DNA of 64,000 nucleotides from an uncultured bacterium (GTDB taxonomy: Bacteria; Chlamydiota; Chlamydiia; Chlamydiales; FEN-1388). Below are positions 38,156-55,097 of this stretch, in pieces. How positions within the stretch are numbered: position 1 is the stretch's first letter; each line of letters opens with the position of its first letter. Location: positions 23,440 through 87,439 of the forward strand of contig CAYWZU010000001.1 in NCBI GenBank assembly GCA_964462925.1, read 5' to 3'. The notes beneath the pieces were generated by a model. That model saw only the letters and a program-made list of their open reading frames with translations. It did not search any database and was not told the origin of the DNA. The position numbers and the translations under genes are program-made.

Positions 38156-38637
38156 ACCCAAAAGAAAAAACCCCATTTATGGTAGCACCATTAGAACAGC
38201 TTATAAATTGGGCAAGAAAAAATTCTCTCTGGCCTGCCCAGTTTGGCCTTGCCTGCTGTGCAATTGAGATGATGTCAACGGCTGCAAGCCGCTACGATAT
38301 TGCAAGATTTGGTGCAGAGGTATTTCGCGCATCGCCTCGTCAAAGCGATGTGTTAATCGTCGCTGGAAGGCTTAGCCAAAAGATGGCCCCTGTCCTAAAA
38401 ACCGTCTACGATCAGATGCTTGAGCCCAAGTGGGTTGTTGCGATGGGCGACTGCGCATCGTCAGGCGGCATCTACAATAACTACGCCATCATACAAGGAG
38501 TAGACAAAATCGTCCCTGTTGATGTGTATGTTGCAGGCTGTCCGCCAAGGCCAGAAGCGCTCCTTGACGGCCTCCTCCTTCTTCAAAAAAAGATCCAAAC
38601 TGAAACGCCATTTCGAGATAAACATGTTGTCAAGTGA
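38146..38637 (+). CDS. nuoB: NADH-quinone oxidoreductase subunit B
   Basis: [23 protein letters not shown] and AGCPPRPEA are the N2 cluster ligand motifs. The ATG at 38146 was chosen; the ORF is also open from the ATG at 38125. Confidence 0.9.
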
Positions 38638-39046
38638 AGTAGAAAAAACAAATCTTTTAGACTCCTTAAAGAGCGAAAAAGAAGCAGGCTTTAGAGTCCT
38701 CATGGATCTTACGGCGGTAGATTATATCACGCATACAAAGATTTTATACCTGCTCCATAATCCAGATACTTTTGAGCGAAAATTTATAACAACTTCGATA
38801 CAAAGAGGCGAAAGCATTCCATCAGTGACAGCGCTTTGGGAAGGAGCCGACTGGTACGAAAGAGAGCTCTGGGATATGTTTGGAGTACATATAACAGGGC
38901 ATCCCGACCTTGCACGGATTTTGATGCCAGATGACTGGCATGGCCATCCTCTGAGAAAAGATTATGCCCTTACTGAAGAGCCCGTAGAATTTAAACATGA
39001 TGTACATCCAAAAGTTCCATCGGAAATAATACCCTATGTTAGATAG
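38624..39046 (+). CDS. nuoC: NADH-quinone oxidoreductase subunit C (short form, about 140 aa)
   Basis: [23 protein letters not shown] and HPLRKDY blocks. The ATG at 38624 overlaps the nuoB stop by 14 nt. The longer track ORF starting at 38519 lies inside nuoB. Confidence 0.85.
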
Positions 39047-40241
39047 ACGAGATCTCACACGGCTAGATGATAGCACAGACAGTATTATGGAGCTCAATTT
39101 AGGGCCTCAGCATCCCTCAACCCACGGTGTGCTTCGGCTCAAGCTAAAGCTTGATGGCGAAGTTGTTGTAGGCTGCGAGCCTGTTATTGGCTACCTCCAT
39201 ACAGGTGTTGAAAAAGAGTGCGAAACGCGCACATACCTGCAGATGTTTACCCTCATCGCTCGCCTTGACTACCTATCAGGACCTGCAGAAGAGCATGCAT
39301 TTGCTCAAACGGTTGAACAGATTATGAACATCGAAGTTCCAGAGCGCGCGCAAAAAATACGCGTTATGCTCCAGGAGCTTGCCCGAATTGCCTCTCACCT
39401 ACTTTGGCTTGGAACAAGTGCTCTAGAGCTTAATATGAGCTCAGTATTTATGTACGCCTTTGTGGAAAGGGAAAAAATTTTAGATCTTATCGAGAGCTAT
39501 TCAGGTGCTCGCATGTTTCCTAACTGCTGGAGGATTGGCGGACTCAATAGAGATCTGCCCGATGGTTTTGTAGAAGCTGCAAAAAAGTTTTTAAAAGAAC
39601 TTCCCAAAGCACTGCGAGATTTAGAGAATCTCCTTACAGATAACTACGTATGGTGCGAGCGCCTTCAAGGAGTTGGAGTCATCGACAAAAAACTCGCTGA
39701 AGAATACATGTGCACAGGCCCCATCCTTCGAGCGTGCGGCGTAGCCTATGATATCCGCAAGGCATACCCCTATAGCGACTATGAAACATACAACTTTGAC
39801 ATTCCAACCCAAAAAGAGGGAGATGCCTACGCTCGCTATCTCGTACGCCTTCAGGAGATGAAAGAAAGCATCTCCATCGTGCAGCAAGTTTTAGACGGCC
39901 TCTCTCCCGGACCTATTATTGTAGATAATCGAAAAGTCGCCCTCCCTCCCCGCTCTGAACTTGCAAGAAGCATGGAGGCTGTGATTCATCAATTTAAATT
40001 AGTTTCTGAGGGCATTCATCCCCCAAAAGGATCACTCTATACCGCTGTAGAATCTGCTCGAGGAGAACTTGGCTACTATGTAGAAAGCGACGGCTCAAAC
40101 AAGCCCTATAGAGTTCGCGTTCGGTCTCCATCATTTCCACACGTTGAGGTGCTTAAAAAAATTCTTCCAGGCCTCATTATTTCAGATGTTGTAGTTGCAA
40201 TTGCAAGTATTGACCCTATTTTAGGAGATGTCGACAGGTGA
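39036..40241 (+). CDS. nuoD: NADH-quinone oxidoreductase subunit D
   Basis: [31 protein letters not shown] and [10 protein letters not shown]. Confidence 0.93.
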
Positions 40242-40690
40242 AACTCTCAGATGAAACAGTAGATGCTATACGCAAGCTGCAAAAACGCTATCCACAAAAA
40301 AGGTCTGCTCTCATTCCATCCTTGCATCTTGCACAAAAGGAGGTAGGATATCTTCCTGTAGACATTCAAAAGGAAGTTGCCGCACTTTTCGACCTTGATA
40401 AAGACGAAGTGCGGGCTATTGCAAGCTTTTACGATATGTTTTTTGAAGAGCCAGTAGGAAAACATATTATTCATGTCTGCAAAAATGCCTCATGCATGCT
40501 TCGAGGATGCGACCATGTGATAGAATGCCTGAAAGCTAAGCTTAAGGACAAAACAGACATAACCCTTATTGAATCAGAGTGCCTCGGCGCATGCGATAGA
40601 GCTCCTATGATGATTGTAGGTGAAAAAGTAGTGGGCCCAGTATCTGTAGATCACCTTGATAGTATCATCGAGGAGGCATCAAATGGATGA
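40238..40690 (+). CDS. nuoE: NADH-quinone oxidoreductase subunit E
   Basis: 2Fe-2S ligand pattern VCKNASCMLRGC...CLGACDRAP. The GTG start overlaps the nuoD stop (GTGA). Confidence 0.88.
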   Translation: MKLSDETVDAIRKLQKRYPQKRSALIPSLHLAQKEVGYLPVDIQKEVAALFDLDKDEVRAIASFYDMFFEEPVGKHIIHVCKNASCMLRGCDHVIECLKAKLKDKTDITLIESECLGACDRAPMMIVGEKVVGPVSVDHLDSIIEEASNG

Positions 40691-41951
40691 GATGAGAGTG
40701 CTTATGCGCTATACGAATGATCCTGAGCAGCGAAGGCTTGCAACGTATCTTAAAAATGGCGGCTACAGGGCAATAAAAAAAGCAAAGGAGACTCTTACTC
40801 CAGATGCGCTTATCGAACTTGTTAAAAATGCAGAGCTCAGAGGCCGCGGCGGCGCAGGCTTTATGACGGGAGTAAAGTGGGGCTTTATACCAAAAGGTGA
40901 ATCCATCGATAAGTATGTCGTCTGCAATGCTGATGAAAGCGAACCTGGGACCTTTAAAGACCGTCTTCTTATAGAAAAGGATCCCCATCAGATACTCGAA
41001 GGCATTATGCTTGCAGCCTATGCCATAGGCGCAAAAAAGGCATTTATTTACTGCAGAGGCGAGTATTTTGAAGGCTTAGAAACCCTAAATGCTGCAGTTG
41101 ATGAAGCTAAAGACTATCTTGATGGCCTAGACATCATTGTTCATCCCGGCGCCGGCGCCTATATAGCTGGTGAAGAGACGGCGCAGCTCAATTCTTTAGA
41201 AGGCTACAGGGCAACTCCCCGCCTAAAACCGCCATTTCCTGCAACCAAAGGCCTCTATAATAAACCTACAATCATCAACAATGTCGAGACGCTCTGCAAT
41301 GTTGTCCATATCGTCAATAATGGCCTTGAATGGTACCAAGGAATAGGAAAACCAAAAAATCGTGGAACTAAAATCTTTCAGATAAGCGGGCAGATTCAAA
41401 AACCTGGCTGTTATGAATTTCCCCTCGGCATCACTCTTAAAGAAGTGCTGGACGCAGCAGGAGGAATGCTTCCTGGTAGATCGTTTAAGGCATGCTATCC
41501 TGGAGGATCTTCCTGCGAGCTGCTCACAAAAGATGATTTAGCCATTTCTATGGATTTTGACTCTTTGATGCAGAGAAAGTCAGCACTTGGAACTGCATCC
41601 ATTATTGTTATGGATGATAGCGCAGATATGGTAAAGGTAGCCCATAGGCTTATGCAGTTTTATCAAAATGAATCATGCGGAAAGTGCACACCCTGCAGGG
41701 AAGGAACCAGGTGGTCTGTGCAGATACTTGCAAGAATAGAAGCAGGTCAAGGAACCTATAGGGACCTTGAAACAATCGATGATATCTGCAATAGCATGGT
41801 TTCAAATTCTTTCTGCCCTCTTGCTGTTGGTGCTGCTCCTCCGATTCAGAGCGCTATGAAGCACTTTAGAGATGAATTTGCAGCCTACATTGAAAAAAAT
41901 CCCGATAGAAATAAGCCCCAAACCTTGAAAATTGCATACCCCTACCTATGA
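40683..41951 (+). CDS. nuoF: NADH-quinone oxidoreductase subunit F
   Basis: RGRGGAGF, NADESEPGTFKDR and ESCGKCTPCREG motifs. The ATG at 40683 overlaps the nuoE stop (ATGGATGA). Confidence 0.93.
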   Translation: MDEMRVLMRYTNDPEQRRLATYLKNGGYRAIKKAKETLTPDALIELVKNAELRGRGGAGFMTGVKWGFIPKGESIDKYVVCNADESEPGTFKDRLLIEKDPHQILEGIMLAAYAIGAKKAFIYCRGEYFEGLETLNAAVDEAKDYLDGLDIIVHPGAGAYIAGEETAQLNSLEGYRATPRLKPPFPATKGLYNKPTIINNVETLCNVVHIVNNGLEWYQGIGKPKNRGTKIFQISGQIQKPGCYEFPLGITLKEVLDAAGGMLPGRSFKACYPGGSSCELLTKDDLAISMDFDSLMQRKSALGTASIIVMDDSADMVKVAHRLMQFYQNESCGKCTPCREGTRWSVQILARIEAGQGTYRDLETIDDICNSMVSNSFCPLAVGAAPPIQSAMKHFRDEFAAYIEKNPDRNKPQTLKIAYPYL

Positions 41952-44104
41952 TAAAACTTACGATTGATGACAAAGAAATAACCGTTGAAAAGGGAACTAC
42001 AGTCTATCAAGCTGCAAAACAGATGGGCATTGACCTTCCCATTTTTTGCTATCAGGAACGGATGCCTCCCTTTGGTGCATGTAGAGTTTGCCTTGTCGAA
42101 GTTGATAAGATGCCAAAGCTGCAAACTTCTTGTACGCTCGAGTGTCAAGAAGGCATGGTTGTGCGAACTCAGGCACATCCTGCAGTAAAAGCTCGCGAAG
42201 AGATTTTGGAATTTTTACTTATAAACCACCCGCTTGACTGCCCAGTATGCGATAGAGGCGGCGAGTGTCCTCTCCAGGATCAGGCGCTTAAATTTGGCCC
42301 TGGCAAAAGCCGCTTTTTCGAAGATAAAAGACATTTTGAAAAACCTATTTCCTTAAGTCCAGTACTCAAACTTGACCGCGAGCGCTGCGTGACATGTGCA
42401 CGCTGCACACGCTTTGGTGATCTTGTTGCAGGCGATCACGCGCTTGAATTTATCGATCGCGGCTACAAAACTGAAGTTGGCGGCGATGCTGACTCTAAGT
42501 TTATAGGAAATACTATCATGATATGTCCTGTTGGTGCACTCACGAGCGATGTCTACCGCTTTAGAGCAAGGCCTTGGGATAATGCAACTACTGAAAGCAC
42601 ATGCACGCTTTGTCCTGTAGGATGCGGGCTCTTTTTAGACTCCCGAGATGGGGAAATTATGCGTACGCGCTCAAAAGAGATGCGAGAAGTAAATGATATC
42701 TGGCTTTGTGATAAGGGCTGGTTTGGCTATGAGTTTAGCTCAAGTGATAAGAGGCTGACTACTCCCCTAATTAAAATTGATGGAAAGCTAAAGCCCGCAA
42801 GCTGGGAAGATGCCTACAGCTTTATTGCAGAGAAGATGAAAAAAGCAAAGACTTCTGCCGCTTTTGGGGGAAACACACTTACTATCGAAGAGAGCTACCT
42901 CCTACAGCTTTTGATGCGAAAAGGGCTTAATTCAACTAATGTCGATCATCGCGTTGGACTGCCCATCTTTTCAAAAGACGAAGAGGGTCTTCAGGCTGGC
43001 ATGGAGCTTCAAATTGGAGATATTGAATCCCTTGATGAAGTACTTCTCCTAGGATGCGACATCACAGAAGAATTTCCTGTGATTTGGCTACGGCTTAAAC
43101 AAGCAATAAATAAAGGCTGCAAAGTGATATTTGCAGGCCACTTTGCACCAGAAGTTTCGCGCTATTTTCAAGAGGTTCATCTACATGCGCCCGGAAATGA
43201 ACTGAGCACGCTCTCTAAAGTAAAGAAAGAAGGGGCTCATATTCTTGTAGGCAGCCAGTATCTTGCGTCAACTTCGCGAAAAGAGCTCCTCGCTGAGCTT
43301 CTCTCCTGGCAGCCAAAGAGCTTAAACCTTCTTGAAGGCAGCGGCAACAGTATGGGCGCCCGCTTTGCTGGCATGTATCCTGATAACGACGGCAAAAACA
43401 TTCTCGAAGTTATGGAAGAGGCAAAAAAATCAGGATGGGACCTTATCTATGCAGTAGGTGCCGACCTGGCATCTAAAATGCCAGAAGCTGAGTGGAAAAA
43501 AGTTCGAAAAAACCTTGGATGCCTTATTGTTCAAGATATCTTTATGACAAAAACGGCAGAAGATGCCGACGTTGTGCTTCCAACTCTTAGCTTTGTTGAA
43601 AAAGGCGGAAGCTTCATGAACATAGAAGGCCGCATCCAAAAGCTAAAGCCCGGGAAAGCAATTCCAAAAGACATCTACGCAGACTCTTATATCTTTGTTC
43701 GAATTGCCCATAAAATTAGATGCTCGCTTGTGATAGAGGAGTCGTTTCTGAATAAATTAAAGCCAGGCCGCCTCCCGCTTCTTCGCCCAAAAAGAATCGA
43801 TGTAGAGGAAAAGCCCGCACAAAAGCATCAGGGACTTACTGCTACATTCTCTCGCGCGCTCTTTGATCAAGGTGTTCGCATGCAGCATAATAGCCATCTT
43901 GTGCAGCTTGTAAAAACTCCCTACGTTCGGATGCATCCAGACGAGGCTAAGGAATCTATAAAACTTGGAGCCATTACAGCTAACGTGCAGCAAGATCCAC
44001 TTGTAGCAAAAGGCTGCATAGTAATCCCCCTTGGCTTTCACGAAATTCCTGCCTATGAGTTAGGCCAAAACCTGCTTTGCGGAATGCCGATACCTTCACC
44101 TTGA
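41948..44104 (+). CDS. nuoG: NADH-quinone oxidoreductase subunit G
   Basis: N-terminal 2Fe-2S fold (CYQERMPPFGACRVCLVEV), HPLDCPVCDRGGECPLQ and CVTCARCTRF, then a molybdopterin-oxidoreductase-like body. Confidence 0.9.
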   Translation: MIKLTIDDKEITVEKGTTVYQAAKQMGIDLPIFCYQERMPPFGACRVCLVEVDKMPKLQTSCTLECQEGMVVRTQAHPAVKAREEILEFLLINHPLDCPVCDRGGECPLQDQALKFGPGKSRFFEDKRHFEKPISLSPVLKLDRERCVTCARCTRFGDLVAGDHALEFIDRGYKTEVGGDADSKFIGNTIMICPVGALTSDVYRFRARPWDNATTESTCTLCPVGCGLFLDSRDGEIMRTRSKEMREVNDIWLCDKGWFGYEFSSSDKRLTTPLIKIDGKLKPASWEDAYSFIAEKMKKAKTSAAFGGNTLTIEESYLLQLLMRKGLNSTNVDHRVGLPIFSKDEEGLQAGMELQIGDIESLDEVLLLGCDITEEFPVIWLRLKQAINKGCKVIFAGHFAPEVSRYFQEVHLHAPGNELSTLSKVKKEGAHILVGSQYLASTSRKELLAELLSWQPKSLNLLEGSGNSMGARFAGMYPDNDGKNILEVMEEAKKSGWDLIYAVGADLASKMPEAEWKKVRKNLGCLIVQDIFMTKTAEDADVVLPTLSFVEKGGSFMNIEGRIQKLKPGKAIPKDIYADSYIFVRIAHKIRCSLVIEESFLNKLKPGRLPLLRPKRIDVEEKPAQKHQGLTATFSRALFDQGVRMQHNSHLVQLVKTPYVRMHPDEAKESIKLGAITANVQQDPLVAKGCIVIPLGFHEIPAYELGQNLLCGMPIPSP

Positions 44105-44120
44105 TCTTAATCCCATTCAT

Positions 44121-44145
44121 TACTAAGATGCGGCCCATCTTAGTA
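44121..44145 (+). terminator. Stem-loop about 16 nt after the nuoG stop
   Basis: tactaagat-gcggccc-atcttagta: a perfect 9-bp stem with a 7-nt loop, followed by ctatattt (weak U-tract). Confidence 0.4.
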
Positions 44146-44176
44146 CTATATTTCACAAGGGGGCTTTATACACATC

Positions 44177-45124
44177 ATGATAAATAATACATTTAATGAA
44201 ATATCCGCACGTGCAATTTTGCTCGGAGGAGTTTATGGTCTTGCCGCAGCTGCATTTGGCAAAGATAGCGCTGGACGTGCTTTTTCCTATATTCCAAGTC
44301 TTGGAGGACGGCTAGCAGAACTTGGCCTAGAATCACTAGTAGATGCAGGATTCATTAACCCGCTCTCTAAAGAGGTTTTACTAAAAGCTCGTTATATCGC
44401 TACGGCAACTACTGCAGTAGTTGCTTTTTGGAAAGGACCCGCACTCATTGGAGCGAGCGCAAATAAACTCCAGGAGATAGGAGGAGGCCTTTCGATCACG
44501 CAAATACTTAAATCGCCCTTTAAGATAAAACAGTATTGGGTCAACCATCCAGATCGCATACTTCTTACCAAACGGCAAGCTATAGCCCTTGGCGCTACGA
44601 CGGTTGTTGCATGTGCTGTTGCAGCAGGCCCTGAGCGCACATCCTGGGCGGTTGATCAGCTAAGCAGCATGCCAAGCCAGCTTGCTGATTATACGTTAAA
44701 TACGCTTAAAATAACTGATGAAAGCTGGTTTTCAAGTGCTGCTACTCCAAGATGGGCAAAATGGGTATCAGGCGCTTCTCTGGTAGCAGGCGGATGGTGG
44801 GCCGTTAATACCGCAGCTGCTGGAGTTCTCTGGGGAGTTAATAGAGTGCTCAAAGGTGTACAGACACCTGTATGGGGGCAAAATTGGTACGACCGTTATC
44901 AAAGTATAGCAAGCGATCACTCCAAGCTATACGATAAGTATTGGGAAGTAAAGAGAGGGGCGGATATAAGACTTGAAGAAGAACAGGCAAAAACTCGAGA
45001 ATACAAAAATCTATTCACAAGAATGGTTGATACTCTCGCACCAAGTCTCAAGGGGAATTTTCAAGGGTTTGCAGATGCGCTTTTAGCGTTCACGAAGCAA
45101 AATGAGAAGTCTGATACAGAGTAA
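44177..45124 (+). CDS. hypothetical membrane protein, 315 aa (Gly/Ala-rich hydrophobic segments plus a charged C-terminal tail)
   Basis: About four hydrophobic segments (ILLGGVYGLAAAAFG, ATATTAVVAFW, ALGATTVVACAVAAG, SLVAGGWWAVNTAAAGVLWGV), then a charged helical tail. Confidence 0.55.
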   Translation: MINNTFNEISARAILLGGVYGLAAAAFGKDSAGRAFSYIPSLGGRLAELGLESLVDAGFINPLSKEVLLKARYIATATTAVVAFWKGPALIGASANKLQEIGGGLSITQILKSPFKIKQYWVNHPDRILLTKRQAIALGATTVVACAVAAGPERTSWAVDQLSSMPSQLADYTLNTLKITDESWFSSAATPRWAKWVSGASLVAGGWWAVNTAAAGVLWGVNRVLKGVQTPVWGQNWYDRYQSIASDHSKLYDKYWEVKRGADIRLEEEQAKTREYKNLFTRMVDTLAPSLKGNFQGFADALLAFTKQNEKSDTE

Positions 45125-45211
45125 CAATAAATGAGACTCCCCATAAACGCTAAATTATTTACCACCCCGCTTTGATCACAGAGGGTAATAATGAAAACTT
45201 AAAGCGCCTGT

Positions 45212-45232
45212 GGGGAGCTTTCCCCTTTTTTT
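45212..45232 (+). terminator. Intrinsic-terminator-like hairpin with a T7 run
   Basis: gggga-gctt-tcccc is followed directly by ttttttt (45226-45232). It lies 88 nt after the 44177-45124 stop and 55 nt before the next ATG. Confidence 0.5.
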
Positions 45233-45286
45233 ACCCTCTCTAAGGCAATCTGTACATAAATTCCCTCATTTGTTACGGATTGGATT

Positions 45287-46450
45287 ATGAAATACGTTAT
45301 CGTTTTACTAGCTATATGCCTACTTAGCGCGGCAAAACCTGCATCTTTTGATGAAAAGATGCAGTCTTTACTTGATGATCATTTTAAAAAATATCAGGAG
45401 CTTGAATATTTTTCTGGCGGCTCCCTTTCTATTTATATCCCTGGAAAGCCGCTGCAAAATTACTTTGCTGGGAAAGTCTCTCACGATCCAGCAAGCAAGA
45501 GCGTTACTAAGGATACCCTTTTTCAAATAGGAAGCATCACAAAGTCCTTTACCGGAGCACTTGTGCTCGTGCTTGAAAAGGAGAATAAACTACATCTAAA
45601 TGACACCTTAAGCACCTATCTTCCAGAGTATCCAAAATGGGGATCTCTCACTATTGATAGTCTCTTAAATATGACAAGTTGCCTTCCAAATTATAGCGAT
45701 GCACCACTCTTTAACGTAGAAGTAGCCAAAACTCCAGAGAAATATTTATCCCCAAAAGCTCTCCTAGAGTATGTTTATCCCTCAGGTGCAACTAATCCCC
45801 CGCTAAGAACGGGCTATTTTTACTCTAACACAGGCTATCAGCTTGTAGATATGATTGTTGAAAAGACTACAAAACAAACCTTCAATGAGGCCCTGAGCAC
45901 TCGCCTCATCACACCTTTAGCGCTTAAAAACACTTTCTACCCAGTGCCTGAGCTATCAAATGAGCAAAAGGCCCGCATGGCACATGGCTATCAATACAAT
46001 AGCTATGATAACCCGCTTCTTGTTGGAAAAGATGTTACAAACATGAACTTAGGATGGGCAGGTGCAGCGGGAGGCATAATAGCTACGACAGAGGACATCA
46101 TCCTTTGGGTAAAAGAGCTCTTTACAGGATCGCTTCTAGACGATGCTCAAAAGAAAAAACTTACATCGCTTCATTCTACAGTATCTGGCAAAGCAATTGA
46201 GCGTGTAAGCCGGGCAGATCCTCAAGGTTTTGGTCTCGGAGTTGTCTGCAAATTGCTGACTGAAAACGAAGAGATGGACTTTTGGTTTTATGAAGGAAAA
46301 ACGATGGGCTTTCGGGCGCTCTACATCTATGTACCAAGCACCGGGATACTTATAGCATCTGCCTTTAATAGCTCTCCAGATGATGCAAATGATCATGCAC
46401 ATGAACTTATCATGCAGGCATATCAGCTTGCAAACAGCCTAAGAAACTAA
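45287..46450 (+). CDS. serine hydrolase, beta-lactamase (class C)/penicillin-binding-protein-like family
   Basis: Signal peptide, SxxK motif GSITKSF, a YSN motif (YSNTGY), and a GKTMGF region in the position of the KTG box. Confidence 0.75.
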   Translation: MKYVIVLLAICLLSAAKPASFDEKMQSLLDDHFKKYQELEYFSGGSLSIYIPGKPLQNYFAGKVSHDPASKSVTKDTLFQIGSITKSFTGALVLVLEKENKLHLNDTLSTYLPEYPKWGSLTIDSLLNMTSCLPNYSDAPLFNVEVAKTPEKYLSPKALLEYVYPSGATNPPLRTGYFYSNTGYQLVDMIVEKTTKQTFNEALSTRLITPLALKNTFYPVPELSNEQKARMAHGYQYNSYDNPLLVGKDVTNMNLGWAGAAGGIIATTEDIILWVKELFTGSLLDDAQKKKLTSLHSTVSGKAIERVSRADPQGFGLGVVCKLLTENEEMDFWFYEGKTMGFRALYIYVPSTGILIASAFNSSPDDANDHAHELIMQAYQLANSLRN

Positions 46451-47352
46451 TTTCGAAGAGCCGTTAAAAAGCCAGCAAGGGCATTATCTCTTGTTGCATC
46501 TTTATCGGTGTGCACATAGTCTCTTAGCAGGCGAAGGGCTTCTTTTTTAAGAAGTGACGGATCTTCTGCAGGACGTTTTAAAATTGCCGCCAAAACAGTT
46601 AGTTTATCTTCAGATGAAAGGGTATCGTTTTCGATACCTTTCTTTATTTCGGCAATTGAATATGCAAGCTTTAGCCGTTCAAATGAATTTTCGCCCTTAC
46701 TAATAGTACGTAGATCTTGAGATGTAACGATGTACGGGATGCTTGCTCGAAGCTCCTCTGCAACTTTATGTTCAGGAAGCGTACTTGCAAATCTGATAAA
46801 GTCAATTTTTTTAAAGTCAATATATCTAATGAGCGTATCTTTCGTGACGGCTACATAGTAGTTCTTAGAATTATCTGCATTCTCCATAACCGCATATTCT
46901 TTATGGGATAATACTTCCTCAACATCTTCAGCATTTTCGCACCACCTCCCCTCAAGGCGGGATTTTTGTTCAAAATGCTCGAGGGGCGAAATTTTCCTTG
47001 AAAGAGGAGGAGTAGCAGCCGTATCGAGGCTATTTCTACGAGAAAGGGGCGGGGTTGGAGCATCTTGCATGTCATATCTCTTTGGAGGCTTTGGCGCGGG
47101 CCCCTTGGGAACCTTTCTAGGTAAGGGCGGAGTAGCGGCGGTATTTAAATCGCTCTGAGGCGCTTTAGGAGCTGGTTTTTTTGGTGCTGAAAACACCTTT
47201 TTAGCAGTTTCGGCCTCTTTTTGAGCCGAGGCTGTTGTTTGCCGACTTGCCGTATGGCTCTTATCAGCTGTTTTTAGATTGTTTTTTGAGCTTTTGGAAA
47301 ACTCAGCAGGCAAATTTTGGTCATTATAGTAGTTTCTTTCTATAGAAGACAT
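46447..47352 (-). CDS. hypothetical proline-rich protein, 301 aa, with three TPPL(P/S)R(K/R) motifs
   Basis: aa 55-123 (nt 46984-47190) read PKKPAPKAP, TAATPPLPRKVPKGPAPKPPK, APTPPLSRR and TAATPPLSRKISP. The C-terminal half is helical. Confidence 0.6.
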   Translation of the reverse strand: MSSIERNYYNDQNLPAEFSKSSKNNLKTADKSHTASRQTTASAQKEAETAKKVFSAPKKPAPKAPQSDLNTAATPPLPRKVPKGPAPKPPKRYDMQDAPTPPLSRRNSLDTAATPPLSRKISPLEHFEQKSRLEGRWCENAEDVEEVLSHKEYAVMENADNSKNYYVAVTKDTLIRYIDFKKIDFIRFASTLPEHKVAEELRASIPYIVTSQDLRTISKGENSFERLKLAYSIAEIKKGIENDTLSSEDKLTVLAAILKRPAEDPSLLKKEALRLLRDYVHTDKDATRDNALAGFLTALRN

Positions 47353-47547
47353 ACCAGCACCCCTTACACCTAATATAGTTAAATTTTATATTTACTTGTA
47401 TCAATAATTAAATACGAAGGGATTTTGCTCTTTGGTCGATTTGACCACGACAATTACACACAAAAGGGCTGCCCTGATCAAAAAACTCATCTTGCGAAAA
47501 ATATTGTACATTGAGCATAAGTAAGTTTTACAAATTTGGAGTGAGCT

Positions 47548-48342
47548 ATGAATATTTGGAAACAGCATGCATTTGCCTTGCTTGGAAGCTTTGCTTTAAT
47601 ACATCCTACGATGGAAGGCATCTCGAGTTTTTCAAAAATAAGTGACTTTCCTGATAGCAGCAGCACATCATCCAAAACCTCAAGTAAATCTACAAAATAT
47701 AAGCGAGGCCCGAAGGGCTCCAAAGGAAAACGAGGAAAAAGAGGTCCTCGCGGAAAACGGGGAAAGCATGGACATACCGGAAAGCCAGGACCAACCGGAA
47801 CAGCTGGACCAGCTAGTATAGGCCCAACAGGAGCGACTGGCGCAACTGGGATGACAGGTCCTACAGGACCATCTGGAGGACCATCTGGCCCTACAGGTCC
47901 CAGCGGCCCGACAGGCCCTACAGGTGCAGGAGCACCTCGGAACTATGGTGCATTCTACGTACAAGGCATACAGACACTCCCTACAGGACAAGATCCAATC
48001 TTGTTCACACAAGGAACGCAAGGCGGCTCTGGTTTTGTCTACCACCCTCTCATGGGTCAAATTATCTTTGGCACAGCAGGCACATACCTTGTAACTTGGG
48101 GCGCATCATTTCAGCAATCGGATGCTGTCTTTGCTTTGATGCTTAATGGCGCCGTTATCCCAACAACATCGCTAGCTTCCGGTTCAGCACTGCAAATGAC
48201 TAGCGGCTCTACCATCATTCAAGTACAAGTTGGCGACACACTCACGGTGGTCAACAACTCAAGCGGCACAATTACTGTAAGCCCAAATGCTCCAACAAGC
48301 ACAAATGTTGGTGCGTATCTTGTGATCCAGCAGCTGCCATAA
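47548..48342 (+). CDS. collagen-like triple-helix-repeat protein with a C-terminal globular (BclA/C1q-like) domain
   Basis: Signal peptide. About 24 Gly-X-Y triplets (nt 47707-47931) with two interruptions, then a beta-rich domain of about 130 aa. Confidence 0.75.
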
Positions 48343-48372
48343 AAAGGTCAAAAGGACCAAAGGGACCAAAAC

Positions 48373-48414
48373 GACATAAAGGATATAAAGGGCGATTCAT
48401 TAGTCCTTTATGTC
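48373..48414 (+). terminator. Hairpin after the collagen-like gene, embedded in a heptamer-repeat tract
   Basis: gacataaagga (48373-48383) pairs with tcctttatgtc (48404-48414) across a 20-nt loop, followed by T-rich ctttttgacttttctgtcctttt. Confidence 0.35.
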
Positions 48415-48443
48415 CTTTTTGACTTTTCTGTCCTTTTAGTGCT

Positions 48444-48472
48444 TTCAAAGAAATCAGAGCCTCCAGTATAAC
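48444..48472 (+). promoter_or_regulatory. Sigma-70-like promoter candidate for nuoH-N
   Basis: TTCAAA, a 17-nt spacer, then TATAAC, ending 22 nt before the nuoH ATG, with GGTGG between the -10 element and the ATG. Sequence pattern only. Confidence 0.3.
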
Positions 48473-48494
48473 CCAAAATTTATGATGGTGGCTT

Positions 48495-49445
48495 ATGTCT
48501 GCATTGCCAATTTTGATTAAAGGGATAATTCTGATTTCGCTGCTCTTCTTGGCAGCAGCCTATATGACTCTGCTTGAGCGCGTTTTAATGGCTCGCGTGC
48601 AGCTACGGCTAGGTCCGAATCGTGTCGGCCCTTTTGGCCTTTTGCAGCCTATTGCCGATGGAATTAAGCTTCTTACTAAAGAGCGCTTTCAGCCAGCAGG
48701 CGTTGAAAAATTCACATATTGGCTAGCGCCTGGCATATCTGTCTTTATAGCACTTAGTGTTTTTATGCTTATCCCATTTGGAGATAGTCCTTGGCTTAAA
48801 ATATCAGATGTGAATGTCGGCATCCTTTTCTTACTTGCTCTAAGCTCGCTTGCTGTCTACGGAGTAGTGCTTGCCGGCTGGTCATCAGATAACAGATATT
48901 CTCTCCTTGGCGGTCTTCGAGGCACAGCGCAGATGATAAGCTACGAAATTCCCATGGGACTTGCAATACTCTCTGTAGTGCTTACAGCAGGAACACTCAA
49001 CCTTACAGAAATCGTCCATGCGCAAAAAGAGGGATGGTTTATTTTGACAAATCCAATCGGCTTTCTTATCTACCTCATCACAGGTTTTGCAGAAACAAAC
49101 CGCGCCCCATTTGACCTTCCAGAGGCAGAGCAAGAGCTTACGGGAGGCTACCATACGGAATATGGCGGCATGAAGTTTGCCCTCTTTTTCCTCGCTGAAT
49201 ATGTGAATATTTTTGCCATCTCCTGCATAGCTACTACCCTTTTTCTTGGAGGCTGGTATGGGCCATTTGATCTTCCCGTCGTCTGGTTTCTCTGCAAAGC
49301 TTTTCTCTTAGTACTCTTTTTTATGCTTGTGAGGGCGACACTTCCACGCTTTCGCTATGATCAGCTTATGAGCTTTGGCTGGAAGCTGCTCATACCTGTA
49401 GCTACCATAAACCTCCTTATAACTGCATACTTTAGGCTGGTATAG
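48495..49445 (+). CDS. nuoH: NADH-quinone oxidoreductase subunit H
   Basis: [51 protein letters not shown] and [13 protein letters not shown]. Confidence 0.93.
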
Positions 49446-49931
49446 ATGTTTAAAAAGCTGAAAAAATATTCACTTCAAGTTCTAGCAATGCTAAGAGGTC
49501 TCTTAATTGTTGCAAAGTACGGCTTTAAAAAGCCTGCAACAATACGCTATCCCGAAGAAAAGAGAACTCTCCCCATAGCATCTCGAGGCCGCCACTACCT
49601 TACCAAATGGCAAGATGGCAAAGAGCGCTGCGTAGGCTGCGAGCTTTGCGCCATAGTCTGTCCGGCGCAAGCAATTTATGTAAAGCCTGCAGAAAATAAT
49701 CCCGAAAATCCACACTCCCATGGCGAGCGCTATGCAAAGGACTTTCAAATTAACATGACGCGCTGCATCTACTGCGGCCTTTGCGAAGAGGCTTGCCCAA
49801 CTGGCGCCATCATCTTAAGCAGCGAATATGAGCTATCTGGATACACACGCGAAGAGCTCATCTTTACAAAAGAAAAGCTTACTGAAAAATACCCCGGCGA
49901 ATCTGGCCGCGACCCTAAAAGAGAGATATAG
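49446..49931 (+). CDS. nuoI: NADH-quinone oxidoreductase subunit I
   Basis: Two 4Fe-4S motifs, CVGCELCAIVCP and CIYCGLCEEACP. Confidence 0.93.
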   Translation: MFKKLKKYSLQVLAMLRGLLIVAKYGFKKPATIRYPEEKRTLPIASRGRHYLTKWQDGKERCVGCELCAIVCPAQAIYVKPAENNPENPHSHGERYAKDFQINMTRCIYCGLCEEACPTGAIILSSEYELSGYTREELIFTKEKLTEKYPGESGRDPKREI

Positions 49932-49932
49932 C

Positions 49933-50427
49933 ATGCTCGCAGATTGGATACTTGGCTTTATAATTATCACATCCTCACTTGGCGTTATTTTAGCCAAAAA
50001 ACCGGTGCACTCATGCTTATCATTTCTCATGACGCTTCTTTCACTTGCTGCTCTTTTTTTACGGCTAAACAGTCCCTTCGTTGCCGTCATGCAGGTTCTT
50101 GTCTACGCAGGAGCAATTTTAGTGATCTTTATGTTTGTTATAGTGCTCTTTCAAGATGCCTACCTTGCAATAGATGAGTATAAACCAAAGGTAAAGCCGC
50201 TCTGGCTTGCCTTTTCAGGGCTTAGCTTTCTTGTAACACTTTCTATAATCGGCATAGAGCTTACAAAATCACCCCTTCCAGCAAGCCGAGAGGCGAGCGA
50301 TTTTGGCTCCGTACAAGCAATCGGCCGCGCGCTCTATATTGACTTTTTCTTTCCCTTTGAAGCAGTAGGCCTGCTCTTTTTGGTGGCAATCGTTGGGGCA
50401 TTATACATTGGTAAAAAGGTGCGTTGA
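49933..50427 (+). CDS. nuoJ: NADH-quinone oxidoreductase subunit J
   Basis: The ATG lies 1 nt after the nuoI stop. Hydrophobic protein with a VMQVLVYAGAILVIFMFVI block. The longer track ORF from 49828 lies inside nuoI. Confidence 0.85.
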   Translation: MLADWILGFIIITSSLGVILAKKPVHSCLSFLMTLLSLAALFLRLNSPFVAVMQVLVYAGAILVIFMFVIVLFQDAYLAIDEYKPKVKPLWLAFSGLSFLVTLSIIGIELTKSPLPASREASDFGSVQAIGRALYIDFFFPFEAVGLLFLVAIVGALYIGKKVR

Positions 50428-50430
50428 TTT

Positions 50431-50718
50431 ATGTATATCTGGATAAGTTTAGCGATGTTTTTGATAGGAGTAGCTGGCCTTCTTGCAAAACGAAATGCCC
50501 TCATTATGTTTTTGTCTATTGAACTTATGCTTAACTCTTCAAATCTCTTATTTGTTTCGTTTTCTAATGACTTAGAAGATACAAGGGGACTTGTCTGGGT
50601 ATTTTTTGTACTTGTACTTGCTGCAGCTGAAGCTGCTGTCGGCCTTGCTATTATTATCAATCTTTTCCGCTCTAAGCAGGTTGTCGATGTGGATCAATAT
50701 AACTCTCTAAAGGGCTAA
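50431..50718 (+). CDS. nuoK: NADH-quinone oxidoreductase subunit K
   Basis: 95 aa with three TM segments, LSIELMLNSSNL and LAAAEAAVGLAII. Confidence 0.9.
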   Translation: MYIWISLAMFLIGVAGLLAKRNALIMFLSIELMLNSSNLLFVSFSNDLEDTRGLVWVFFVLVLAAAEAAVGLAIIINLFRSKQVVDVDQYNSLKG

Positions 50719-50719
50719 T

Positions 50720-52450
50720 ATGCAATTGCTACTCTGGACTGCACTTTTTTTACCCCTTGCAGGCTTTCTCCTGCAACTCTTTCTGCCGCTTTCACGGAAA
50801 GTTATAACAAAACTCGGGCCATTTACAATTTTTGCCTCTTTTTGCTGTTTTGTAAGCCTCTCTTTACAAAATAGCTTTTTTGAAACGACACTTTTTAGAT
50901 GGATTTCCCTGCCATATCTGCAGGCAGACTTTGCTCTCCACTACGACTTCCTTTCAATGCTAATGACACTTATTATTACAGGCGTTGGCTTTTTGATTCA
51001 CGCCTACTCTGTAGGGTATATGGACCATGAGAAAGATATTAGACGCTACTTTGCGGTGATGAACTTTTTTATCTTTAGCATGCTGCTCCTAGTGCTTGCA
51101 CAAAACCTTCTTTTACTTTTTGTAGGCTGGGAAGGCGTGGGTGTGGCATCCTACCTCTTAATTGGTTTTTGGTATCAGAGAAGGGCTGCTGAGGAAGCTG
51201 CAAAAAAGGCTTTTGTTGTTAATAGAATTGGAGATCTTGGACTTCTTCTTGGCATATTTTTAACGTTTGCCCTCTTTGGAACTAGTGATATAGCGGTAGT
51301 TACGAAAGCAGCAGGCTCTGGCATCATAGTAGCAATACTTTGCCTCCTCTACTTTTGGGGAGCATCGGGAAAATCTGCGCAAATTCCTTTACATACATGG
51401 CTTCCAGATGCAATGGAAGGCCCTACCCCAGTATCTGCCCTTATCCATGCTGCAACAATGGTGACAGCAGGAGTCTACCTTGTTGTACGGATGTCCCCTC
51501 TTTTTACTCAGGCGCCGTATGCTCTTGAAATTGTTGCATTGGTTGGAGGAGTAACTGCCCTCTATAGCGCCCTCTGTGCCACGAGCCAAACAGATATTAA
51601 GCGAGTACTTGCCTACTCAACGCTAAGCCAGCTAGGCCTGATGTTTTTAGCATGCGGATTTAAGGCATACAGTGCAGCACTGTTTCATCTAACAATGCAT
51701 GCCTTTGCAAAGGCACTCCTCTTTCTTTCTGCAGGAAATGTTATCCATATGCTCCACGGGGTGCAGGAGCTTTCTCAAATGGGCGGCCTTAACAAATCCC
51801 TTAAAAAAACAAATGTACTCTTTTTGATCGGTGTCCTCTCTATGGGAGGAATACCTCCACTTGCCATATTCTTTAGTAAGGATTTGATACTAGAGGATAT
51901 CTCTTCATCAACTCCTTATTATATTCTTGGACTTACTGTATCTCTCCTCACCGCCTATTACTTGATGCGTGCATATACAATGGCCTTTTGGGGAGAGCCA
52001 AAACAGCAGGCAGAAGATGCTCCACCTGTTATGATTATTCCAGTATCAATACTTGGCGTTTTATCCATAGTGGGAGGCATGTGGCTTGCAAAAACCTTTG
52101 GATTTCATATGGGACCTGGAATGTGGATCTCTATTGTAGTAGCTATCTTTGGTATTTTCCTTGGTACAATCAACAGAAAAACCCTTCAGTTTTTCTATAA
52201 AGCATTTTATATCAATGAACTGTATGAAAATATGATTATTTCTCCCCTTAAGAAAGTTGCGTATACTGTTTCGTCTATTTTTGAGCCAAAAATCTTTGAT
52301 GCAAGTATTGACGAGCTAGCACGTGCTGGCTATAACACAGCATCACTTCTGCAAAAAATCCAAACAGGTCGCATACGTTCATACATTGCCTGGATTATCC
52401 TAGGAACCTCCTCTGTCATCTGCTACCTTATTTATGAGGGCTTTATCTAA
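50720..52450 (+). CDS. nuoL: NADH-quinone oxidoreductase subunit L
   Basis: FVGWEGVGVASYLLIGFW, KSAQIPLHTWLPDAMEGPTPVSALIHAATMV and LAYSTLSQLG. Confidence 0.92.
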   Translation: MQLLLWTALFLPLAGFLLQLFLPLSRKVITKLGPFTIFASFCCFVSLSLQNSFFETTLFRWISLPYLQADFALHYDFLSMLMTLIITGVGFLIHAYSVGYMDHEKDIRRYFAVMNFFIFSMLLLVLAQNLLLLFVGWEGVGVASYLLIGFWYQRRAAEEAAKKAFVVNRIGDLGLLLGIFLTFALFGTSDIAVVTKAAGSGIIVAILCLLYFWGASGKSAQIPLHTWLPDAMEGPTPVSALIHAATMVTAGVYLVVRMSPLFTQAPYALEIVALVGGVTALYSALCATSQTDIKRVLAYSTLSQLGLMFLACGFKAYSAALFHLTMHAFAKALLFLSAGNVIHMLHGVQELSQMGGLNKSLKKTNVLFLIGVLSMGGIPPLAIFFSKDLILEDISSSTPYYILGLTVSLLTAYYLMRAYTMAFWGEPKQQAEDAPPVMIIPVSILGVLSIVGGMWLAKTFGFHMGPGMWISIVVAIFGIFLGTINRKTLQFFYKAFYINELYENMIISPLKKVAYTVSSIFEPKIFDASIDELARAGYNTASLLQKIQTGRIRSYIAWIILGTSSVICYLIYEGFI

Positions 52451-53754
52451 TGCTTTTGCTTTTTTTACTTCCCCTGCTTTTTGCATGCACCTTGCCAAAG
52501 CAAAAGCTTGCCTTTTTCTTTAGCTTAGTACCACTCACGCTCCTACTTTCTGGGCAGACAGAAAGCGTGCAGGAAAATTGGTTTTTAGGAGAAACCGTAA
52601 AGTTTCATCTTGCACTAGACACACTCTCTCTTGTCTTTGTCTATCTCGTTGCAATCCTCATTCCCATTTGCATTCTTGTACAAGAGAGTAAGTTCTGCCT
52701 CACCCTCCTTCTCCAAGGGCTGCTTATAGGCTTTTTTTCTGCACAGGATTTGATGTTTTTTACCTTTTTCTTTGAAGCAATCCTCATTCCCCTTTTCTTT
52801 ATGCTGCAAAGACCATTTAAGTTTATTATCTATATGATAGCAGGGTCTTCTTTGATGATTCTTGGAGCGCTCTCGCTCTACCTTGCAGCAAATAGCTTTG
52901 ATCTTACCTATCTAAAAGAACATGCTGAACGTATTGCCCATGCAGAGATCTATGCCTTCATTTTTTTACTTGCCTTTGCAGTAAAGACTCCCCTATTTCC
53001 ACTTCATGGCTGGCTTGCAGATAGCTATACACTTGCTCCCACATCTGCAACTATACTCCTTTCAAGCCTGCTCTCCAAGGCAGGAATATATGGGATTATC
53101 CGCATAGCATTTGGCCTCTTTCCAACTATTATGTCGCTTTGGAATCCAGTACTTCTCCTCTTTGCAATAGGCGGCGTGCTCTATGGGGCCTTCGCAGCAT
53201 GGGGACAAAATGACTATAAAAGACTCATTGCCTATTCAAGCCTCTCTCACGTAAACTTTATCCTTGTAGGCCTTTTTGCAGGCACTCTCATTGGGCTGCA
53301 AGGGGCAATTTTTGCATCCGTCAACCACTCAATTACTATAGCTGGGCTCTTTATCGTATCTGGCTGGCTCGAAATGCGCCTTGGAACAACAACACTTGCT
53401 GGCGCATCTGGTCTTACGGCAACGATGCCTAAACTTAGCTGGATAACGCTCTTTTTTATTCTCTCTAGCGTTGCTCTTCCTGGCCTCAATAATTTTATTA
53501 GTGAAATTATGGTGCTTTACGGCCTCTTTCAGATAAGTTTCTGGCAGACGCTCCTTGTTGGAACAACTGTTATATTTTCTGTGATCTACATGCTTAAGTG
53601 GTTCCATACTGTCTACTTTAATGCACCACAGCACAATGGCTACTCAGACATTCAAGCAAAAGAGGTTTTGATTCTGACCCCGCTTATTGTACTCATCCTC
53701 GTGCTGGGAATATACCCATCAATTGTTCTAACCCTTATTCAGAGCATTACATGA
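52450..53754 (+). CDS. nuoM: NADH-quinone oxidoreductase subunit M
   Basis: Antiporter-like subunit with FAVKTPLFPLHGWLADSY and LIAYSSLSHVNF. Its ATG overlaps the nuoL stop. Confidence 0.88.
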   Translation: MLLLFLLPLLFACTLPKQKLAFFFSLVPLTLLLSGQTESVQENWFLGETVKFHLALDTLSLVFVYLVAILIPICILVQESKFCLTLLLQGLLIGFFSAQDLMFFTFFFEAILIPLFFMLQRPFKFIIYMIAGSSLMILGALSLYLAANSFDLTYLKEHAERIAHAEIYAFIFLLAFAVKTPLFPLHGWLADSYTLAPTSATILLSSLLSKAGIYGIIRIAFGLFPTIMSLWNPVLLLFAIGGVLYGAFAAWGQNDYKRLIAYSSLSHVNFILVGLFAGTLIGLQGAIFASVNHSITIAGLFIVSGWLEMRLGTTTLAGASGLTATMPKLSWITLFFILSSVALPGLNNFISEIMVLYGLFQISFWQTLLVGTTVIFSVIYMLKWFHTVYFNAPQHNGYSDIQAKEVLILTPLIVLILVLGIYPSIVLTLIQSIT

Positions 53755-55097
53755 ACACTCAAGACCTACTTGCAATAGCACCTCTTCTGATACTTTTTGC
53801 TGCAGCACTCCTGATGCTCCTTATAGAGAGAAAAAAGACAGTATCTCTTGTTGCAATCGGATCCCTTCTTCTTGCAGTAATAGCCGCGCTTTTTGCACCA
53901 GCCTCTCTAAGTCCAATGCTCACGCCATGGCTTGCCTTTGACTCGCTCTCTCGCTTTTTTACACTGCTCTTTTTAGGTATTGGCCTCGCTACTGAGCTTG
54001 TAAGCGAGTACTATTTTGAAAAAAAGGCAGAGTTTTCCTTCTTCCTGCTCTCATCGATCTTTGGCCTTATCTTAATTGCTATGGCTCAGGACTTTTTAAC
54101 GCTTTTTATTGGACTTGAAACACTCTCCATTAGTCTCTACGTTCTCTGCAGCTACATAAAAACAAACGCTTTTTCTGCAGAAGCCTCCTTTAAATACTTT
54201 CTCCTCGGCTCTGTATCTACCGCCATCTTACTTTTTGGCATTGCGCTGATCTATGGAAGCACAAAAACGACAGCACTCGTAATGCCTCAAAATCCAGATG
54301 CCCTCTTTGGCGTTGGTATATCGCTCGTTACAGTATCGCTACTCTTTAAAGCAGCCATTTTTCCCTTCCACATCTGGACACCTGATGTCTATCAAGGTGC
54401 TGCATCACCCGTTACGCTCTTTATGGCAGCTGGAACAAAAGCAGCAAGCTTTGCAGCCTTTATTCGGATATTTTTACTTGGATTCTCTGCAATTAATCCA
54501 ATCTGGCATAGCCTTATGGCCTATATGGCAATACCAACACTTCTCTTTGCAAACTTTGTTGCGATAAAACAAAAGGAGCTTAGGCGCTTTTTTGCCTATT
54601 CAGGTATCTCACATGCCGGTTTTTTACTCCTTGGCCTTGCGGCAGGTGATACTTCTAGCATTCTTTTTTACCTTGTTGTTTATGCCCTTGCCACAGTCGG
54701 CTGCTTTTGCTGCCTTGCCTTTATTGACAGAAAGCCAGAAGGAGTTACAGTCCCTGACCTCAAAGGCCTCTTTAGCGCACATCCAGTTATTGGCGCTTCA
54801 TTTGCCTTTTGCCTACTTACACTTGCAGGCATACCTCCCACAATAGGTTTTTTTGCTAAATTCTATATCTTTAAAGCAGCATACACAGCAGGCTTTGTTA
54901 CCCCGGTAGTTATAGGGCTTTTGACAACCATACTTTCTGCCTACTACTACCTTATGTTTATTGCCGCCATCTTCACAAGTAAGGAGGAATCCGCTCCAGT
55001 GCAAAACGGGCCACTTTTTGCAACATGCTTTGCATGCGCAAGTCTTCTTGTACTTACCTTCTATCCAGAGCCGCTACTCAAATTTATTTCGTTCTGA
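53751..55097 (+). CDS. nuoN: NADH-quinone oxidoreductase subunit N
   Basis: Antiporter-like subunit with FKAAIFPFHIWTPDVYQGA and FFAYSGISHAGF. Its ATG overlaps the nuoM stop (ATGA). Confidence 0.88.
   Translation: MNTQDLLAIAPLLILFAAALLMLLIERKKTVSLVAIGSLLLAVIAALFAPASLSPMLTPWLAFDSLSRFFTLLFLGIGLATELVSEYYFEKKAEFSFFLLSSIFGLILIAMAQDFLTLFIGLETLSISLYVLCSYIKTNAFSAEASFKYFLLGSVSTAILLFGIALIYGSTKTTALVMPQNPDALFGVGISLVTVSLLFKAAIFPFHIWTPDVYQGAASPVTLFMAAGTKAASFAAFIRIFLLGFSAINPIWHSLMAYMAIPTLLFANFVAIKQKELRRFFAYSGISHAGFLLLGLAAGDTSSILFYLVVYALATVGCFCCLAFIDRKPEGVTVPDLKGLFSAHPVIGASFAFCLLTLAGIPPTIGFFAKFYIFKAAYTAGFVTPVVIGLLTTILSAYYYLMFIAAIFTSKEESAPVQNGPLFATCFACASLLVLTFYPEPLLKFISF

Follow-up and report, generated by a model that had tools for sequence, protein, structure and literature searches.

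In its canonical form, the gene cluster of respiratory complex I (NDH-1) consists of contiguous genes nuoA–N in a set order on a single strand, as in Escherichia coli, Thermus (nqo1–14), and most nuo-bearing chlamydiae. In Rickettsiales, the nuo genes are scattered. Split complex I clusters are also known in other bacteria, and most clades mix split and single-cluster forms (PMC12361115). NuoA–N, Cyo, and F-type ATPase were inferred to have been gained from a Terrabacteria-like source before the common ancestor of Waddlia, Parachlamydia, and Criblamydia (Dharamshi et al. 2023, PMC9816063), and Nuo was acquired as a unit by Amoebachlamydiales (PMC9816063). Our literature search for a split between nuoG and nuoH described in Chlamydiae returned nothing specific. 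Here we analyzed a stretch of 64,000 nt from an uncultured bacterium of the Chlamydiales (GTDB FEN-1388; GenBank assembly GCA_964462925.1, contig CAYWZU010000001.1, positions 23,440–87,439; hereafter the window), in which nuoA–G and nuoH–N are separated by four unrelated genes. The comparison with relatives makes it likely that the locus combines an old, clade-wide break of the operon, a dedicated promoter of nuoH, and a fluid island of genes in the gap.

Organization of the split nuo locus

All 14 nuo subunit genes were found in the order A to N on one strand; the set is complete but not contiguous. As in the canonical cluster, the junctions within each half are tight, the genes overlapping or lying at most 3 nt apart with open reading frame (ORF) starts assigned mechanically. 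In contrast to the canonical cluster, nuoG and nuoH are separated by unrelated genes over 4.4 kb, of which one lies on the opposite strand, and a separate conserved promoter-like element precedes nuoH. nuoG ends at 44104 (NuoG matched TIGR01973 at 522 bits) and nuoH starts at 48495 (NuoH matched PF00146 at 427.7 bits), and the 4,390-bp gap holds four ORFs, designated orf1, orf2, orf3 (minus strand), and col (Table 1). Both the split and the tightness of the other junctions had been noted in a preliminary description of the window, and the ORF map and the profile matches confirmed them. The division into a peripheral arm (A–G) and a membrane arm (H–N) given in that description is approximate only, because NuoA is a membrane subunit and NuoI a peripheral one. 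The four gap ORFs are present in public data as predicted proteins, three of the four exactly. Since the window proteins were singletons when clustered at 90% identity, a close strain for comparison is lacking.

Table 1 Features of the split nuo locus (positions in the window).
Feature	Position	Strand	Description
nuoA-B-C-D-E-F-G	37796–44104	+	First half of the complex I set; all seven with orthologues in relatives
Hairpin after nuoG	44121–44145	+	Perfect 10-bp stem, 5-nt loop, 17 nt past the nuoG stop
orf1	44177–45124	+	315-aa Ala/Gly-rich orphan; GGGGG Shine-Dalgarno-like run upstream
Intrinsic-terminator-like site	45212–45232	+	GGGGAGCTTTCCCC plus T7, after orf1
orf2	45287–46450	+	387-aa S12-family serine peptidase, predicted secreted, DD-peptidase/D-peptidase-like
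orf3	46447–47352	-	301-aa orphan; tail-to-tail 4-nt overlap with the end of orf2
col upstream block	47490–47547	+	TTGCGA 47492–47497, 18-nt spacer, CATAAG 47516–47521, GGAG 47538–47541
col (orf4)	47548–48342	+	264-aa collagen-like protein
Right-border hairpin	48350–48437		Arms 48350–48383 and 48404–48437, imperfect, inverted runs of 9-nt units
nuoH upstream block	48443–48494	+	TTCAAA 48444–48449, 17-nt spacer, TATAAC 48467–48472
nuoH-I-J-K-L-M-N	48495–55097	+	Second half of the complex I set

The nuoG–nuoH junction in relatives

The best matches of NuoH and NuoG came from chlamydial bins labelled Parachlamydiaceae, Chlamydiales, or Protochlamydia, and a few were labelled Verrucomicrobia; the non-chlamydial matches obtained here fit the Terrabacteria-like source reported for nuo (PMC9816063). 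In nine unsplit chlamydial loci (L002–L008, L041, and L055; NuoH 70–76%), nuoG and nuoH were adjacent with spacers of 25–276 nt, and none of the four island genes was found within 20 kb. The two genes were also adjacent in most non-chlamydial loci; four non-chlamydial loci had no nuoG within 10 kb of nuoH. Every closer relative examined was broken at the nuoG–nuoH junction. On the nuoG side, L083 (NuoG 86%) had four small, unrelated genes between nuoG and the contig end. In L084 (NuoG 79%), a palindromic element of 257 nt separated nuoG from a col orthologue, and in L085/L086 (NuoG 69%), L087 (70%), and L088 (71%), unrelated genes occupied at least 10 kb downstream of nuoG. On the nuoH side, L090 (NuoH 95%; the same bin as L083) had a col orthologue immediately upstream of nuoH, and the corresponding position was occupied in L091 (NuoH 86%), L092 (87%), and L001 (80%) by a Pom-family gene, an unannotated 215-aa ORF beside a kinase gene, and DUF2867, respectively. 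According to the record coordinates, both halves lie on the same strand of one contig in ERZ25039484 contig_21869, with a gap of 41,924 bp, and in JADMIO011135737.1, with a gap of 17,546 bp that includes a cyo-like COX1–4 operon on the other strand; gaps elsewhere in the clade are at least 8 kb and at least 10 kb.

In a neighbour-joining tree of NuoH, the five split lineages grouped together with 100% bootstrap support, to the exclusion of the nine unsplit chlamydial sequences. A single ancestral break is the most economical reading. The contents of the gap behave differently from the break itself. tblastn detected no homologue of orf1, orf2, or orf3 in the island of any relative, and col, limited to the two closest relatives, is the sole shared island gene; the islands of the relatives carry Ank, LRR, TPR, SET, Fic, Ser/Thr-kinase, NUDIX, and acetyltransferase genes. 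On this comparison the gap contents appear to turn over quickly, since orf1–3 lack homologues in these islands and col alone is shared.

NuoG of the split clade is shorter (714–738 aa), and we considered a C-terminal truncation of NuoG at the break. This candidate was rejected: tblastn alignments reached residues 713–715 of 718 in the relatives checked and ended at 695 in the relatives with NuoG of 69–71% (L085/L086 and L088/L089). The break is therefore intergenic. In L087, a second, weak copy of the NuoG C-terminus (residues 679–713, 51% identity, E = 1e-4) was observed at 12562–12666, ca. 350 nt past the nuoG stop, and it may be a duplication scar of the break.

Three further observations concern the gap and its borders in relatives. 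In the window (29273–32746) and in L087 (467–3817), the relative whose gap measures 42 kb, nuoA is preceded by a TamB gene; the operon is therefore syntenic on its left flank, and the gap expanded where it stood, not by the moving of one half. Inside the nuo gap of L092 (3510–7296), and also at the end of L085 (14787–15079), the opposite strand carries a COX2-COX1-COX3-COX4 operon resembling that of cytochrome o oxidase, so that in two relatives one respiratory cluster stands within the break of another. The palindrome of L084 (2658–2914) begins right after the nuoG stop and has 73-nt arms, 93% complementary, built of CCACA[GA]AG units, termed heptamers in our analysis. L003 and L041, both unsplit, have similar heptamer-built palindromes in their nuoG–nuoH spacers, as does L088 upstream of nuoA. 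The L084 palindrome looks like a miniature inverted-repeat transposable element or a repetitive extragenic palindrome.

Composition of the gap genes and signs of mobility

The preliminary description had interpreted the gap as an insertion of effector-like genes that divided complex I expression into two transcription units, and we compared the composition of the gap genes with that of their surroundings. The mean GC content at third codon positions (GC3) of the four gap genes was 0.351, against 0.359 for the 29 non-nuo genes of the window (p = 0.60), and their codon use fits the host genome. It was the nuo genes that deviated: their mean GC3 of 0.411 was above that of the 29 non-nuo genes (p = 7e-5), which is compatible with the reported horizontal origin or with an expression-linked codon bias. 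Searches with Pfam, NCBIfam, and PHROG revealed no mobility gene (integrase, transposase, or recombinase) in the island, and neither a tRNA nor an Rfam family was found in the window. Flanking direct repeats were considered as insertion scars and rejected, as only 21-nt matches with 71–76% identity were present at the borders. The four gap genes are thus native in composition and bear no mark of a recent foreign insertion.

That an accessory or effector cassette of four genes was recently inserted by horizontal transfer into an intact operon is therefore difficult to reconcile with these data, and we regard it as unlikely. It would agree with the presence of four genes that are unrelated to respiration and of which none but col recurs in the islands of the relatives examined, with the tiny and patchy families of orf1 and orf3, and with the variation of orf1–3 among close relatives, these genes being missing from the L083/L090 and L084 islands. 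However, all the closest relatives share the break with other contents, col is orthologous and syntenic in two of them, and the composition and the missing integrase, transposase, tRNA, and direct repeats tell against a foreign cassette. Moreover, the two orf1 homologues with readable context lie outside nuo, beside clpB or a peptidase M24 gene, and are accompanied by neither orf2 nor orf3. As an account of the break itself, recent insertion is largely refuted; orf1–3 may be a later addition within the old gap. The outcome of the synteny comparison is thus neither an accessory insertion nor an arrangement fixed in every part, the two alternatives framed in the preliminary description: an ancient, fixed break holds contents that vary, col alone being shared, and only with the two closest relatives. 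Of the original interpretation, the interruption of the operon, relative to a contiguous ancestral state, stands, and comparative evidence speaks for a separate nuoH–N unit; the discrete recent cassette is not supported.

Conserved element upstream of nuoH

A TTCAAA-17-TATAAC site had been described as promoter-like upstream of nuoH, and it is present at 48444–48472, with hexamer matches of 4/6 and 5/6 and a spacing within 16–18 nt. In the comparison with L090, the ca. 53 nt upstream of nuoH form an interval of ca. 87% identity, against 52% at the fourfold-degenerate sites of nuoH, and both hexamers are invariant. Throughout the split clade, the -35-like hexamer reads TTCAAA or, in L091 and L092, TTGAAA, followed after 16–17 nt by TATAAC or TATAAG. 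A single copy of the pattern AAAGAAA-N11-14-TATAAS was found shortly before nuoH in the window and in each of L090, L091, L092, and L093, which, apart from L001, covers all split-clade loci of sufficient length; this corresponds to four of 93 loci plus the window, with none in the other 89 and a chance expectation of 0.12 in the window. None of the unsplit relatives has the pattern upstream of nuoH, and L001 retains TATAAG but not the full pattern. L091 and L092, in which a divergent gene lies upstream, retain the block. These observations support, without proving, the view that the block is a candidate dedicated promoter and leader of nuoH–N that arose with or soon after the break.

On the left side of the gap, the perfect hairpin noted after nuoG is present, with a stem of 10 bp rather than the 9 bp first given. 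It is A-T-rich with just three G-C pairs and a poor T-tail (CTATATTTCA), has a z-score of -1.76, and showed no conservation in L083 or L084 (alignment A3); perfect stems of at least 10 bp occur at four sites in the window, against 0.6 expected. Transcription termination directly after nuoG is doubtful, because the first canonical terminator-like site downstream of nuoG is that at 45212–45232, after orf1. orf1 may be co-transcribed with nuoA–G. On the right side, the border hairpin is likewise present, although its arms consist of 9-nt units (Tandem Repeats Finder period 9) and not of heptamers as first described; the arms are 79% complementary (dG -39.2 kcal/mol, z -5.6). At the same position in L090, between col and the nuoH block, there is a canonical terminator with an 11-bp stem and T9 (dG -22, z -6.1). 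The right-border hairpin of the window likely terminates col. Separate transcription of nuoH–N is favoured by the comparative evidence because the conserved nuoH block is combined with a terminator or hairpin after col and with orf3 on the opposite strand.

The operon might instead still be one unit, transcribed by read-through from the nuoA promoter, with the nuoH block acting as a leader, processing, or translation element. The poor terminator after nuoG and the co-orientation of three of the four island genes with nuo would suit such read-through, but orf3 runs in the opposite direction, and transcription would have to pass a canonical terminator-like site after orf1 and, both in the window and in L090, a strong hairpin or terminator after col. 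In addition, the nuoH block is kept in relatives whose gaps of 17.5–42 kb hold opposite-strand operons such as cyo, and in L091 and L092 despite the divergent upstream gene. We consider continued read-through quite improbable and retain a nuoH–N unit with its own candidate promoter.

Genes in the gap

The product of orf2 had been described as a secreted class C beta-lactamase-like hydrolase. The signal-like N-terminus (hydrophobic segment 1–23) agrees with this; the class does not. orf2 matched PF00144 at 172.5 bits (gathering score 27), and a class C (AmpC) beta-lactamase was ruled out, as the match to NCBIfam bla_class_C reached 87.6 bits, far under the cut-off of 415. The best solved relatives are the alkaline D-peptidase and the R61 DD-peptidase (alignments with PDB 4y7p and 1cef). 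The SxxK (SITK) and YxN (YSN) motifs are intact and aligned to the catalytic motifs of R61 and the alkaline D-peptidase. The third motif is divergent, with Y-E-G at the aligned position and K-T-M two residues on. Judged by its sequence, orf2 encodes an S12-type peptidase that is predicted to be secreted.

col contains 24 Gly-X-Y triplets within residues 54–128 and matched PF01391 at 30 bits (cut-off 27.2), and its N-terminus is signal-like. Its C-terminal domain stayed below the Pfam thresholds (BclA_C, 29 vs 38 bits; C1q, 20.8 vs 23.7 bits); a BclA_C/C1q-like domain has support from the alignment with PDB 1wck (E = 1.9e-8) and from the match to phrog_30509 (95 bits). The orthologue directly upstream of nuoH in L090 is 81% identical, and that downstream of nuoG in L084 is 72% identical. 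The col upstream block (TTGCGA-18-CATAAG plus GGAG) is kept in both although their upstream neighbours differ, and it is a candidate col promoter and ribosome-binding site. A metagenome scan with col was flooded by generic collagen repeats; its best match was 39% identical, and the known L084 orthologue was missed. In frames other than that of col, collagen-type Gly-X-Y codons can be read in both arms of the right-border hairpin: the plus strand gives KGPKGPKRHKGYKG, and the other strand gives KGQKSQKGHKG, inside a 58-aa minus-strand ORF (48272–48448). The hairpin may be a relic of collagen-repeat DNA.

orf1 and orf3 are orphans. The Ala and Gly contents of orf1 are 13.7% and 8.3%, in agreement with the earlier label of a Gly/Ala-rich membrane protein; the protein is weakly hydrophobic, with two 19-residue windows at a Kyte-Doolittle value of at least 1.4, and the membrane part of the label is unproven. 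orf1 had zero matches in Pfam, NCBIfam, PADLOC, and PHROG, and searches of its family against Pfam at relaxed E-values and of orf1 against PDB sequences also gave nothing. Just six homologues, with 45–51% identity, were found among 5.8 billion proteins, and the predicted structure, built from a 7-sequence alignment, had a predicted local distance difference test (pLDDT) score of 38.1, too poor for a fold search. orf3 had no match in Pfam, NCBIfam, PDB, or PADLOC. As described earlier for the opposite-strand gene, it is rich in PxxP motifs (six), just as col is collagen-like; orf3 also has three TPPL[PS]R[KR] repeats and a conserved C-terminal domain (alignment A6). Its family comprises three other cluster representatives (P0250–P0252) among 1.84 billion proteins, and the members share two to four copies of [DE]xAxTPP[LI][SP]R[KR] and a C-terminal domain with an EGRWCE motif. 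These repeats resemble eukaryote-type short linear motifs. The structure predicted from the single orf3 sequence had a pLDDT of 47.5, again too poor for a fold search. We infer that orf1 and orf3 are candidate secreted or membrane proteins. Taken as a whole, the cargo of the gap looks like envelope or host-interaction proteins, with a putative secreted S12 peptidase and a probably trimeric collagen-like surface protein.

Two matches raised the question of a decayed prophage tail module, with col as a collagen-like protein and orf2 as a lysin of the minor tail: col matched phrog_30509 ('collagen like minor tail') at 95 bits over nearly its full length, and orf2 matched phrog_382 ('minor tail protein with lysin activity') at 154.7 bits. 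However, the orf2 match is confined to the shared PF00144 domain, a tblastn search of 50,697 phage records with col was empty, other phage genes, an integrase, and att-like repeats were not found, and the signal-like N-termini of orf2 and col suit cellular secreted proteins. A prophage origin is therefore very improbable. An assembly artefact, that is, a chimeric contig joining two nuo halves via unrelated sequence, is hardly credible, because, although many of the relatives come from metagenome binning and misjoins can arise at inverted repeats, independent assemblies show nuoG–col (L084) and col–nuoH (L090), two other genomes hold both halves co-oriented on one long contig, and the island does not differ in composition from the rest of the window.

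Proposed history and transcription units of the locus

An old break with a dedicated nuoH promoter and a fluid island thus remains our preferred account, and we propose the following history. We place the window in an environmental, Parachlamydiales-like chlamydia. In the ancestor of its clade, the horizontally acquired nuoA–N operon would have been broken once, exactly in the nuoG–nuoH spacer. The break would have persisted because nuoH–N gained its own sigma-66/70-type promoter (TTSAAA, 16–17 nt, TATAAS), and the gap would thereafter have been a fluid island gaining and losing lineage-specific genes, many of them for envelope or host-interaction functions. Five transcription units would result in the window. 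The first would comprise nuoA–G and probably continue through the weak hairpin into orf1, stopping at 45212–45232; the second would be orf2, convergent with orf3; the third would be orf3, transcribed from the divergent region 47353–47547; the fourth would be col, with its own conserved promoter and an end in the hairpin at 48350–48437; and the fifth would be nuoH–N, transcribed from the conserved promoter at 48444–48472.

Several points weigh against this account. TTCAAA/TATAAC taken alone is a weak consensus match that the consensus scan did not list, and promoter-like matches in the region are no commoner than in shuffled sequences. The -35-like part is not clearly conserved in L001. The promoter and terminator functions are read from sequence conservation. 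With regard to the phylogeny, the NuoH tree is a single-gene neighbour-joining tree and not a species tree, and the boundary of the split clade was drawn without the intermediate NuoG relatives P0013, P0015–P0018, and P0022. Finally, the nuo halves of the closest relative (L083 and L090) are on different contigs.

A broader reading would make the gap between nuoG and nuoH a long-lived, clade-wide plasticity zone, in which the break was viable via the acquired nuoH promoter and envelope and host-interaction genes were repeatedly taken up and lost; to this we give an even chance. In this reading, its cargo would be represented by col here and by Ank, LRR, SET, Fic, and kinase genes, even the cyo operon, elsewhere. 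If the gap is such a zone, the nuo halves would offer fixed reference points in the search for lineage-specific effector candidates, and the locus would be a datable natural case of operon fission with promoter birth.

Other features near the nuo locus

A GTACAA[GC]GGC box was found 12–35 nt upstream of nuoA in every split-clade locus (window 37768–37777, L083 5821, L086 804, L087 5809, and L088 5869). It is absent upstream of nuoA in unsplit relatives, and matches elsewhere are at chance level; the box is a possible leader or regulatory site of the nuoA–G half, specific to this clade. Right after nuoN, an 85-aa ORF (55289–55546) matched only the C-terminal two-thirds of PD-(D/E)XK_3 (profile positions 39–117 of 117) and is probably the remnant of a truncated nuclease gene. 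Further upstream, an identical hairpin with a perfect 10-bp stem (ATGCCTCTTC-N4-GAAGAGGCAT) occurs at 34856–34879 and 35105–35128, 249 nt apart, the two copies occupying the spacer of the convergent genes at 32819–34843 (plus strand) and 35153–37021 (minus strand). The paired hairpins may be two bidirectional terminators or a small repeat element.

Comparison with known systems

Among the gap genes, orf2 shares with the S12 peptidases (Streptomyces R61 DD-peptidase, Bacillus alkaline D-peptidase, and D-amino-acid amidase) the PF00144 fold and the SxxK and YxN motifs, but its third motif is YEG/KTM, whereas theirs is HxG/KTG. col resembles BclA of the Bacillus exosporium, C1q/TNF-like proteins, and phage collagen-like minor tail proteins (phrog_30509) in having a leader, Gly-X-Y repeats, and a putative BclA_C/C1q-like C-terminal domain. 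It differs from them in that this domain is under the Pfam cut-offs, in lacking an LPXTG or exosporium-targeting motif, and in its chlamydial host.

The Chlamydiaceae have a 'plasticity zone' near the replication terminus, and operon decay by insertion of unrelated genes is a general concept. The nuoG–nuoH gap is like plasticity zones in that a fixed chromosomal landmark stands beside variable lineage-specific genes (Ank, LRR, SET, Fic, Ser/Thr-kinase, and TPR genes in the relatives); unlike them, it lies inside a respiratory operon and not near the replication terminus, and mobility machinery was not detected. For chlamydial genomics, it is a previously undescribed variable region that gathers lineage-specific surface and effector-like genes. 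It also carries a caution, since a single genome would have been insufficient for calling such a gap a recent insertion.

As in other split complex I clusters (PMC12361115) and in Rickettsiales, the nuo genes lie in separated groups and all subunits are retained. Split clusters elsewhere differ from the present one, which has one fixed junction, co-oriented halves that lie fairly near each other, and a gap ranging from 4.4 to 42 kb within one clade. What is known of complex I is unchanged, as split nuo clusters were already known in other bacteria. We regard the locus as a modest case of operon fission and not as a recent insertion: a natural example of an essential multi-subunit operon that split and stayed split, with a fixed break point, a new promoter-like element, and a gap of 4–42 kb. 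Particular to it are the single fixed break point in one chlamydial clade, the co-oriented halves, the ca. ten-fold variation of the gap, and the conserved new promoter-like element on the downstream half.

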